In this document: positions 18,001-21,000 of the stretch, one piece after another
How the letters are laid out: each line of letters begins with the position of its first letter
How positions within the stretch are numbered: the stretch's first letter is position 1
IMG/VR virus record: IMGVR_UViG_2909303794_000001
Direction: 5' to 3' (one strand)
DNA from: a virus
Lineage: Duplodnaviria > Heunggongvirae > Uroviricota > Caudoviricetes
DNA length: 54,748 bases
Position numbers: made by a program

Positions 18001-21000
18001 GACACGTTCATCTTTGGTCATACGCAAGCAGTGAAACCACTCAAATTTGCCAACCAGATGTATATCGATACCGGCGCAGTGTTCTGCGGAAATCTCACAT
18101 TGATTCAGGTACAGGGAGAAGGCGCGTGGGCATAAGAGAACTAAACCTCACCAAAGAACAGCATGAGTGGCTGAATGGCTGGCTTGAACTGTGGGGCGCA
18201 TGGGTTTATTCAGGTCGTCTGGAAAAGCGCATGAGCAGCGTAATAGCTAAATTCATGGAGAGCGTGGAGCCGGGAAGAGTTATGACAAGGCCAATGTGTA
18301 ATGATGATGATGGAATGTTGATTTCTCAGGTCGTCGATTCCGTCATGTACATTGACAAGAAAGCCTTTGGCATCCTCCTCAGCTACTACGCCCACGGCTC
18401 TTCCAAGCACGCCATTGCATCTTACTATCATAGCGTCGCAAGACCTCGCAAGATGTTATGCCGGGGCGGCGGGCGCATTCAAAAACCATCGCTAGCAACC
18501 TGTCGACGGGAAGTTGACGAAATCCTCAATGCCTCGTTGTTTATGATTTACCCGATTCTGGATAGTGCGTTTAAAAACCGGAAACGTGTAGAGAAAATTA
18601 AGCATGTAGCATAGAACGTGTTGACATCGTTGAGCAAATGAGCAACACTATTCGCATAAGCTGCCGTTAGTGACTCTTAAGTTGCAACGGTGGCTTTTTT
18701 TATTTGGGTCAATCGTATAAAGGTCATTAGAGCCTGTAACTGTTTTTCGTCCATAAATTAACCTTCATTTGATGCTGGATTGAACATATCAAAATCAGGC
18801 AATTACACAAATCTATGTACAGGCTCTTTGTGCCTGACGTTAAAAGATTTTTTACAAGAATAATTTTGAATCAGTGAATTTGTGAACTCTTGCAACATTG
18901 ATTTCGTAACGTTATTATCCTACGCTCGGCCCTTTAGCTCAGTGGTGAGAGCGAGCGACTCATAATCGCCAGGTCGCTGGTTCAAATCCAGCAAGGGCCA
19001 CCAACCGCCATTAGCTCATCGGGATAGAACGCCAGCCTTCTAAGCAATCGGTCACTGGTTCGAACCCAGTACAACGCACCACACTTATTTTCCCTCGCTC
19101 GCTTTTGCGGACCTTTTTTGTATCCGCGCCACGCCCGGCGCATACCAACCACAGAGCCTTTCGGGGGGGAGCTTACGGAGTGGTCAGTGTGACTTTCTCT
19201 GTGGGCAGATCGCTCCCGGGCGTTGGCTCACCCACCCAAAGGAACGTCACGATGTTTGGTATTTTTGGTAAAAAAAGCCCGCAGAGCGGCAACGGAAATT
19301 AAAAAGTTTGAAAAACGCGATCTGGCACAGGCGGTGATTAACGCCGCATACCTGGTGGCCTGTGCAGATGGTGAATGTGAGGCTTCCTAGAAAGCGAAGA
19401 TCGAACAGGTACTGCGTAATCAGCCTGCGCTGTCCGCGTTTACGTCAGAAATTAATGCGATTAGCGCAACCATTATCGGTCAGCTGGATACGAACTTTAA
19501 AATTGGTCGTCGTGCGGCGTTACGTGAGATCGAGGATGTGAAACACGATACGCGTGAAGCGGAAGATGTGCTGGATGTGGCGGTGGCCATTGCGGAGGCA
19601 GACGGCGAAATTGAGCCGGAAGAGCGCAAGGTGCTGGAAGAGATTGCCGGTGTTCTGGGTCTTCGTCTGGAGAATCACCTGTGACGGTAAAACTGCGCCT
19701 GACTGTGGCTGCACTCCTGCTGTTTCTGGTGGTGATGGTGGATTTCACCAGCAGAATCATGTCGGTGCTGGCGGATGGGGTGCTGGTCTGCGGCATTGTG
19801 GTATTGCTGTGGCCGGTGATAAAAAGAAACAGCCTGCATAATGCTTGATTTTTTTGTTTGCTGTTTATTAAAAACACTTCTGCATGGTGAATCCCCCTGT
19901 GCGGAGGGGCAATCAGCGAGTAGGTATATGGGATAATCGCGGATTCAGGTGCTGGTACTGAATTCACCGGGAGGCACCCGGCACCATGCTTTGCCACAAA
20001 AGTGTTATTTCTGTTTTTCTCAAACTATCATCGTTATCCCTTTATTTCCGGCTGCGCATGGCGCGGCCTTTTTTTTACGACCAGCCACTGGCAGATGGTC
20101 ATCCTGTGATTTGATTCCGGTTCCGGCTTTTTAACTCTGTTCCTGTACACGGGAGAAATTCGATGTCGATTAAACATTATGATGTTGTCAGGGCGGCGTC
20201 GCCGTCAGACCTTGCGGAAAAGCTGACACACAAACTGAAAGAGGGCTGGCAGCCGTTTGGTAGTCCGGTGGCCATAACCCCTTATACCCTGATGCAGGCG
20301 ATTGCAGCAGAAGGTGATGTGGTGGTCAGTGGTGCAACTGAGCCGGATTGGTACTACGTCATCGTACTGGCCGGGCAGTCCAATGCAATGGCTTACGGGG
20401 AAGGGCTTCCGCTTCCGGATTCATACGATGCTCCGGATCCGCGCATTAAACAGCTGGCGCGCCGCAGTACAGTTACGCCGGGTGGGGCTGCCTGCAGATA
20501 TAACGATATTATTCCGGCCGACCACTGCCTGCATGATGTGCAGGATATGAGTACGCTGAATCATCCGAAGGCAGACCTGAGCAAAGGGCAGTACGGCTGT
20601 GTCGGCCAGGGCTTACATATTGCCAAAAAACTGCTTCCGTATATCCCGAATAACGCGGGGATCCTGCTGGTACCATGCTGTCGTGGTGGTTCTGCATTCA
20701 CCCAGGGCGCTGAGGGGACATTCAGTGCGGACACGGGGGCCAGCCAGGATTCGGCACGCTGGGGTGTGGGTAAACCGTTATATCAGGACCTGATTGCGCG
20801 CACTAAAGCTGCATTACAGAAGAACCCGAAAAATGTGTTGCTGGCGGTGTGCTGGATGCAGGGAGAGTTTGACATGAGCGCCGCCACCCACGCACAGCAA
20901 CCTGCGCTGTTTACAGCCATGCTGACACAGTTTCGTGCTGACCTCTCCGTGTTTAACGCGCAGTGCCATGGTGGCAGTGCTGCAGATGTGCCGTGGATTT

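Follow-up and report, generated by a model that had tools for sequence, protein, structure and literature searches.

Organisation of the two loci

The window, by which we mean the whole stretch of 54,748 nucleotides of the Caudoviricetes record IMGVR_UViG_2909303794_000001, carries a late control region of the phage 21 type. The Q21-type late antiterminator gene (18126..18614, + strand) was recognised as an open reading frame with the Pfam domain Phage_antitermQ (E = 8e-25), and the segment 18430-18729, formed by the 3' part of Q and the sequence downstream of it, is 98% identical to phage 21. The annotation of phage 21 (OL657228) was transferred through this alignment, position x of the retrieved phage 21 segment being window position x+16929. 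It places the late promoter pR' and the Q-binding element at 18621..18649 (+), with the -35 TTGACA at 18621-18626 (+) and the -10 at 18644-18649 (+), and the late terminator tR', annotated in phage Nil2 as well, at 18658..18705 (+). Directly after tR' begins a tRNA-Asn gene of the phage 21 type, of which the initial 24 nt are present (18706..18729, +; its start is position 1777 of the phage 21 segment). The identity with this gene ends after ...ggtcatta, at the point where it is interrupted by the first copy of the element studied here (copy 1, 18730..18826, - strand), which lies 116 nt after the stop of the antiterminator gene, just 3' of Q as the first-pass annotation had placed it. The rest of tRNA-Asn is absent beyond the far side of the element, and the gene found there is a tRNA of the ileZ type with anticodon CAT (18928..19003, +; ARAGORN; Rfam tRNA, 72.5 bits). 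It is the first gene of a tRNA/cargo module and corresponds to the gene annotated as tRNA-Ile in Nil2 and in Stx2 phages.

The second copy (copy 2, 51444..51540, +) is situated in a cargo locus, between a fragment of a Mutator/IS256-type transposase gene and the 3' end of the effector gene nleA, again as had been described. The nleA gene (51642..53036, -) is an open reading frame annotated under that name in E. coli records that are 99.2% identical in this region. On the other side of copy 2 there is a 23-nt spacer (51421..51443), followed by the transposase gene fragment (51203..51420, -), which belongs to NCBIfam IS256 family, matches Pfam Transposase_mut (E = 5e-8) and aligns by blastn at 95.4% over 218 nt with nt 100-316 of the insertion sequence IS1414, in the orientation opposite to that of copy 2.

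A repeat finder applied to the whole window reported a single long inverted pair, 18731-18829 and 51441-51539, of 99 nt and 96% complementarity. Base-by-base comparison reduces the homologous unit to 97 nt, 18730-18826 on the + strand against 51444-51540 read on the - strand, with 93/97 identical positions, a longest identical run of 47 nt and four mismatches at element positions 1, 20, 46 and 50. Thus the repeat noticed at first is real, with a size of 97 bp and four mismatches instead of the 96 bp and three originally given. The 39-nt core of the repeat occurs exactly twice in the window against none expected from 100 shuffles, and the similarity of the pair is far above chance. As anticipated, reading both copies confirms that the homology breaks off sharply at both edges, the extra 2-3 matching bases being due to chance. 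The termini, initially described as imperfect inverted repeats, form a perfect 9-bp inverted repeat, GAGCCTGTA / TACAGGCTC, which appears as a 9-bp stem when the element is folded; beyond this stem the fold is unremarkable (z = -1.3).

Identity with the left end of IS1414

Alignment identifies both copies as nt 1-97 of an insertion sequence of the IS1414 type, a member of the IS256 family with a length of 1315 bp. Over 99 nt copy 1 has 100% identity with the left end of the annotated full-length IS1414 of NZ_CP033635, and as read on the + strand of the window it is the reverse complement of IS nt 1-97. Within the first 97 nt of the IS, the left inverted repeat (IRL) and the 5' leader precede the beginning of the transposase gene, which is represented by its first eight codons from the ATG (nt 73) onwards. 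In NZ_CP033635 the complete element has the IRL GAGCCTGTACATAGATTTGTGTAATTG and a right inverted repeat (IRR) ending in ...AAACAGGCTC, and is flanked by the 8-bp duplication CAACCAAA; when read in the direction of the transposase it begins with GAGCCTGTACATAGATTTGTGTAATTGCC... and finishes with ...CATTTACACAGAATCCTAAACAGGCTC. The 97 nt are contiguous with the transposase gene in this full-length element. IS1414 has reportedly been described by McVeigh et al. in 2000. It belongs to the IS256 family, occurs in E. coli and contains the astA/EAST1 reading frame (see also PMC12585946).

The 5' end of the transposase gene reads ATG GAC GAA AAA CAG TTA CAG GCT CTG GCT AAC..., and its codons 6-8 (TTACAGGCTC; TTA CAG GCT C, nt 88-97) reproduce by coincidence the octamer ACAGGCTC that terminates the IS, which explains the apparent terminal inverted repeat of the element. 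The second terminal repeat is therefore coding sequence and not an IS end, so that of the terminal repeats first proposed only the outer one corresponds to a true end. The internal look-alike has only 8-9 nt in common with the true repeats and lacks the inner motif TGTGTAA. Both window copies include the IRL and the leader that follows it; neither has an IRR, nor a Mutator-type transposase gene (Transposase_mut / IS256) that is intact and enclosed by two inverted repeats. Copy 1 is oriented with its IRL at the 18826 end, the IS-internal end (nt 97) facing the tRNA-Asn stump, and next to it there is no transposase gene beyond the eight codons. Copy 2 extends from nt 1 to nt 96/97 according to direct reading and alignment, base 51540 being changed.

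The element is present in 3,964 of 5,426 complete E. coli genomes, the number of places per genome having a median of one and reaching 21 at most, and many of these matches overlap genes annotated as "IS256-like element IS1414 family transposase". The first-pass annotation would have been content to drop the element as a discrete unit if the similarity went well beyond 96 bp in related genomes and other copies did not exist; the similarity does extend far past 97 bp elsewhere, over the full 1315-bp IS1414, but other copies exist.

Mosaic junctions at the late region and at nleA

Position 18729, at the inner edge of copy 1, is the last base of the homology with phage 21, with the tRNA/cargo module lying on the other side, and the homology with the region downstream of nleA in O157:H7 ends exactly at 51541, the edge of copy 2. 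The early suggestion of a scar marking the junction of cargo DNA is consequently borne out for both copies. Comparison of the sequences downstream of Q in related prophages, which had been recommended at the outset, leads to the same boundary: the match with phage 21, SfI, JLK-2012 and phi458 covers window 18430-18729 at 96-98% and goes no further, and phages of the Stx2c type carry the identical junction. The same succession of Q21, stub and tRNA is found in the Stx2c/Stx2a phages Nil2, 2851, 1717, F349, WGPS4, WGPS6, phi330 and others, and also in many O157:H7 chromosomes. In the record of phage Nil2 (AJ413274) the stub is labelled "putative passively mobilized insertion similar to IS285"; in phages 2851, 1717, Stx2a_F349, Stx2a_WGPS4, Stx2a_WGPS6 and phi330 it is present but unannotated. 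Since the parent IS is known and the stub at this very phage position is annotated in a public record, the finding is new neither in kind nor in sequence.

The history of copy 1 was approached by searching the 5,426 complete E. coli genomes with constructed junctions. With the element placed in a Q21-tRNA-Asn-tRNA-Thr region that is intact in other respects there were 0 matches, the empty version of this site being common in the same genomes; a progenitor, in the form of a longer IS1414 joined to the tRNA-side flank of copy 1, also gave 0 matches; and the junction expected after inversion between the two window copies was found in 0 records at >=80% coverage. Copy 1 is thus a solo IS end lying exactly on a mosaic boundary; it is no simple insertion and does not belong to the late promoter. 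As regards the Nil2 label, the present data do not support the words "passively mobilized".

These results bear on the proposal that the element is a functional phage sequence, either as a part of the late promoter or of antitermination, or as an inverted pair maintained in order to flip the 32.6-kb late region. Its location between tR' and the first genes of the late region, its conservation in many Q21-type prophages and a perfect run of 47 nt usable for homologous recombination are what one would expect from such a role. However, the block formed by pR', the Q-binding element and tR' (18621-18705) is situated upstream of the element and has its counterpart in phage 21, whose late control region is complete without the element, so that the idea of a late-promoter segment is not supported. 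The element occurs moreover in chromosomal and plasmid contexts outside phages, and checks against Rfam, for promoters and terminators and for folding returned nothing specific to it, with no Rfam match and no unusual fold. The inversion of the late region, which had been pointed out as a consequence of the paired arrangement, is formally possible because of the 47-nt identical run, but the recombinant junction is absent from the 5,426 complete E. coli genomes. We regard a functional role of either kind as extremely improbable.

The situation at copy 2 is different in that the element belongs to a larger decayed IS and does not stand alone. Following the minus strand, the order is nleA stop codon, hairpin, element nt 97 to 1, 23-nt spacer, IS1414 nt 100-316 and the region downstream of an NleG gene, and therefore IS nt 1-97 point in the opposite direction to the remainder of their transposase gene. 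The spacer appears to be an inverted flank: in reverse complement it resembles the O157:H7 sequence immediately beyond the nleA-side junction, with 17/23 positions matching (17/20 overlapping), directly at the junction and in the reverse orientation only, a match that was reached anywhere in 60 nt by 248 of 20,000 shuffles. The arrangement is common to 193 genomes, the best match to the region having 99.2% identity, and the "empty" nleA site of O157 differs from the window by more than the element alone. A constructed junction representing the uninverted ancestor, nleA-flank-IS, gave 0 matches, and for this reason we infer the inversion from the arrangement itself. The best partial match to such an ancestor was rejected as low-complexity similarity of the flank only.

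Solo stubs, the recurrent breakpoint and the origin of the copies

Besides copy 1 we found four further solo stubs, with unrelated flanks and ending at nt 97-102 of the IS. They are located in the cvrA-dadX intergenic region of K-12 (about 3,258 genomes have the K-12-type region), beside genes for a type I restriction system and an M48 peptidase (hsdR-M48 locus; nt 1-97), at a plasmid junction where yacA is truncated, and downstream of eibE in phage P-EibE. In an alignment of seven copies, the full IS included, nt 1-96/97 are common to all the stubs and divergence sets in 0-5 nt after nt 97; those of P-EibE and K-12 appear to retain IS nt 98-100 and 98-102. The breakpoints of six independent stubs consequently cluster at nt 96-102, as a spread and not at one exact base. 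When IS nt 1-297 were used as query against a spread sample of 60 E. coli records, the matches starting at nt 1 stopped at nt 46, 88, 97, 98 or 102 or continued to nt 278-297, and none ended between nt 102 and 278. This distribution of end points indicates that the size class of 97-102 nt is real. Relatives of IS1414 are widespread in Enterobacterales; among the matches listed they are mostly IS copies of Symbiopectobacterium and Phytobacter, without any family of 97-bp solo units. Several truncated relatives in other Enterobacterales break at nt 87-95.

Visual inspection, with slightly shifted boundaries also considered, disclosed an 8-9 bp target duplication in 0/6 stubs, both window copies included. 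A perfect 8-bp duplication accompanies 7/18 full-length relatives in other Enterobacterales, and with a baseline of about 40% the missing duplications are weakly informative (0/6 gives roughly p = 0.08). The direct comparisons of sites at copies 1 and 2 argue against simple insertion more strongly than the missing duplications do.

With these data the MITE-like element of the first-pass annotation can be evaluated, that is, a 97-bp non-autonomous unit bounded by the IRL and an IRR-like octamer, moved by the IS1414 transposase in trans, of which the window copies would be independent insertions. Its shape is that of a MITE, being short, derived from an IS and provided with a 9-bp terminal inverted repeat. 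It forms a discrete size class in the 60-record sample and occurs in at least five unrelated flank contexts across E. coli, its phages and plasmids, with three of the stubs 100% identical to an active-looking IS1414, and passive mobilisation was proposed by the annotators of phage Nil2. The search for further copies and for target duplications that had been recommended did provide the former, at unrelated loci, but not the latter, and the 0/6 count is suggestive, not conclusive. What fails is movement as a unit. No pairs of filled and empty sites differing only by the element exist in the 5,426 E. coli genomes at the Q21 site or in O157 at nleA; the remainder of tRNA-Asn is missing at copy 1, for which no genome offers a simple filled site even though empty ones are common; and copy 2 adjoins the remainder of its own transposase gene. 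The inner terminus is formed by transposase codons 6-8, without the inner repeat motif, and is not one of the true ends of the parent IS; some stubs keep IS nt 98-102 beyond this supposed end. Finally, the copy number is low, with a median of one place per genome that is mostly the one fixed cvrA-dadX copy, and no 97-bp solo family is found among the other Enterobacterales matches listed. A true MITE is thus an unlikely explanation.

The octamer ACAGGCTC offers another route to the same product, because it occurs twice in IS1414 in direct orientation, at nt 90-97 and as the last 8 nt of the IS. Slippage or a microhomology deletion between these octamers could collapse the IS to nt 1-97 in situ without any transposase, and would yield exactly the size of the hsdR-M48 stub and a product compatible with copy 1. 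Such a collapse predicts the original flanks on both sides, together with a duplication where one existed, but the flanks of copy 1 are different phage modules and the remainder of tRNA-Asn is gone. At copy 2 what meets nt 100 at the break is an inverted segment, and in P-EibE and K-12 the nucleotides 98-100 and 98-102, which slippage would remove, are apparently kept. This origin seems to us quite improbable, more so than the MITE and less so than a function in the late region.

Therefore we favour, with good confidence, an explanation in which both copies are inert remnants of two separate insertions of the IS1414 type, caught in rearrangements of the cargo regions, and represent neither a self-contained mobile element nor a phage control signal. 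For copy 1, an IS1414 would formerly have preceded the ileZ-type tRNA genes in a cargo module of the stx type; a rearrangement starting from about nt 97/98 would have removed the rest of the IS and thereby fused the stub to the phage-21-type Q-pR'-tR' module, inside its tRNA-Asn gene, and the stub would since have been inherited within the hybrid late region, as in Stx2c phages. For copy 2, an IS1414-type element may have inserted downstream of nleA and lost its 3' part by deletion, after which a 120-bp piece, made up of 23 bp of flank and IS nt 1-97, would have been inverted with one of the breakpoints between nt 97 and nt 100. As none of the genomes searched has a full IS1414 at the tRNA-side junction of copy 1 or an uninverted IS at the nleA junction, the order of these events is one that we infer. 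Further weak points of this explanation are the short match of the inverted flank at copy 2 (17/23) and the spread of the breakpoints over nt 96-102.

As for the breakpoint itself, the octamer at nt 90-97 may act as a cryptic IS end, or as a breakage hot spot for the transposase, in adjacent deletions and inversions, which would account for an end point at nt 96-102 in each of the six independent stubs. A transposase bound at the IRL would occasionally take the internal octamer as the opposite end, leading either to adjacent deletions, which would leave solo stubs on foreign DNA without duplication, or to small inversions such as that proposed for copy 2. Elements of the IS256 type form circle junctions with a few bases beyond the IS end, and by analogy these extra bases would fit the 0-5 nt spread of the breakpoints. 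Recognition by the transposase is uncertain, since the cryptic end comprises the terminal 8-9 nt only and not the inner TGTGTAA. In its most developed form, IS1414 nt 1-97 may be a discrete recombinogenic unit, with the cryptic octamer embedded in codons 6-8, on which the transposase acting at the IRL and at the cryptic end would repeatedly provoke self-destructive adjacent deletions and small inversions and leave behind stubs of 97-102 bp where mosaic segments meet. In Stx2c phages, an event of this kind would have brought the weak Q21 late-control module and the tRNA-stx2c cargo module together, and a second one would have remodelled the nleA cargo locus. We put this forward as a speculative extension, clearly less probable than the origin as inert remnants.

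The 97-bp repeat should accordingly be labelled as a left-end remnant of IS1414 (IS256 family), and not as a new MITE, a regulatory element or the boundary of an invertible segment. Its value is that of a historical marker, which records with base precision the joining of the phage-21-type Q/pR'/tR' module to the tRNA-plus-cargo module of Stx2c phages, and which relates the remodelling of the nleA cargo locus to the same IS family as the junction of copy 1. The recurrent internal breakpoint is the sole point that is possibly new, and it is a mild curiosity; a literature search returned work on IS1414/astA and no description of a 97-bp stub or of a cryptic end. If the breakpoint at nt 96-102 does represent a cryptic site of the transposase, it would provide a small example of an IS destroying itself while fusing phage modules.

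Among known systems the closest is IS1414 itself, whose nt 1-97 constitute the window element and whose nt 100-316 are about 95% identical to the neighbour of copy 2; the window copies differ from it by having no intact transposase gene, right inverted repeat or target duplication. With bacterial MITEs the element shares its short length, non-coding character, derivation from an IS, terminal inverted repeats and presence at several loci, but one of its termini is a chance look-alike within the transposase gene in place of the true right repeat, target duplications and filled/empty pairs are absent, and the copy number is very low. The feature of Nil2 (AJ413274) and its counterparts in the other phages show 99-100% identity with copy 1, with the same flanks and at the same place, preceded by the tR' that belongs to a Q21-type antiterminator and followed by the tRNA genes; the difference is that stx2 comes after the tRNAs there, whereas the window has a decayed second tRNA and no stx gene behind it. 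Solo IS ends produced by IS-mediated adjacent deletions and inversions are classical for IS1, IS10 and IS903. The window stubs depart from these in their putative dependence on the transposase and in the position of the break, which lies inside the IS at the recurrent nt 96-102 and not at the true opposite end, and resemble them in retaining a single IS end in place, in bordering foreign DNA on the other side with no duplication, and in their position at mosaic junctions.

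The cvrA-dadX intergenic region and the start of the transposase gene

The cvrA-dadX intergenic region, which in K-12 carries the left end of IS1414 as a solo stub without the rest of the element, is a hypervariable site. In E. coli O157:H7 FRIK2069 (locus L005, 3251-4684) it contains a diverged IS256-type left end with the same flanks as the K-12 solo stub and the opposite orientation, and an IS3-family (IS629-like) copy splits this end. On both sides lies CGCAGCCT, an octamer that possibly represents an 8-bp duplication. A solo stub in partial tandem duplication occupies the site in Shigella flexneri SFBU1023 (L080, 5668-5830), the order being nt 1-83, then nt 1-71, then ...GCAGGCTC; in other strains the intergenic region is much shorter, with neither the IS256-type end nor the IS3-family copy.

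Relatives of the element that are cut off or internally deleted were located in other Enterobacterales, namely Brenneria, Symbiopectobacterium and Erwinia dacicola, together with one further locus (L054, L096, L048, L068, L014 and L078), and their breaks lie at IS nt 87-95, numbered along full-length IS1414 with the transposase ATG at nt 73. After the break the transposase gene resumes further downstream at L054 and L096. These break points hint at a general weakness of this group of IS1414 relatives where the transposase gene begins.

Repeats within the window and at its ends

A repeat search of the window revealed an inverted repeat of 382 nt (95%) at its ends, 3-384 and 54365-54746. On the right, the arm and an IS3-family orfA (HTH_Tnp_1, 54422-54748) overlap, and beside orfA lies an rve integrase fragment (53982-54350); thus, inverted IS3-family copies bracket the prophage region on both sides. 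For large inversions these copies are a far better substrate than the 97-bp IS1414 pair (18730-18826 and 51444-51540), to which the first-pass annotation had assigned such a role.

The same search found two 39-nt units, ATCCCTCAAAACGAGGGA, at 11599-11676, which we take to resemble lambda-type origin iterons, three copies of a 281-nt repeat spaced by 162 nt in a structural gene (32764-33368), collagen-like GXY repeats (49280-49572) within the ORF for the tail fibre (48497-49816), and a repeat of 66-69 nt inside nleA (52394-52528).

Architecture of the late region

In the ileZ-argN-argO-type cluster, the second tRNA (19005-19078) is decayed, scoring 19.7 bits with the Rfam tRNA model against a threshold of 29, with no ARAGORN call. 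No stx genes follow the cluster in the window (span 19100-20160), the next large gene encoding a NanS-p-like protein with DUF1737 and SASA esterase domains (20163-22013). In Stx2c phages a Q21-type antiterminator, the IS1414 stub and tRNA genes precede stx2; the late region of this prophage has that architecture minus the toxin.
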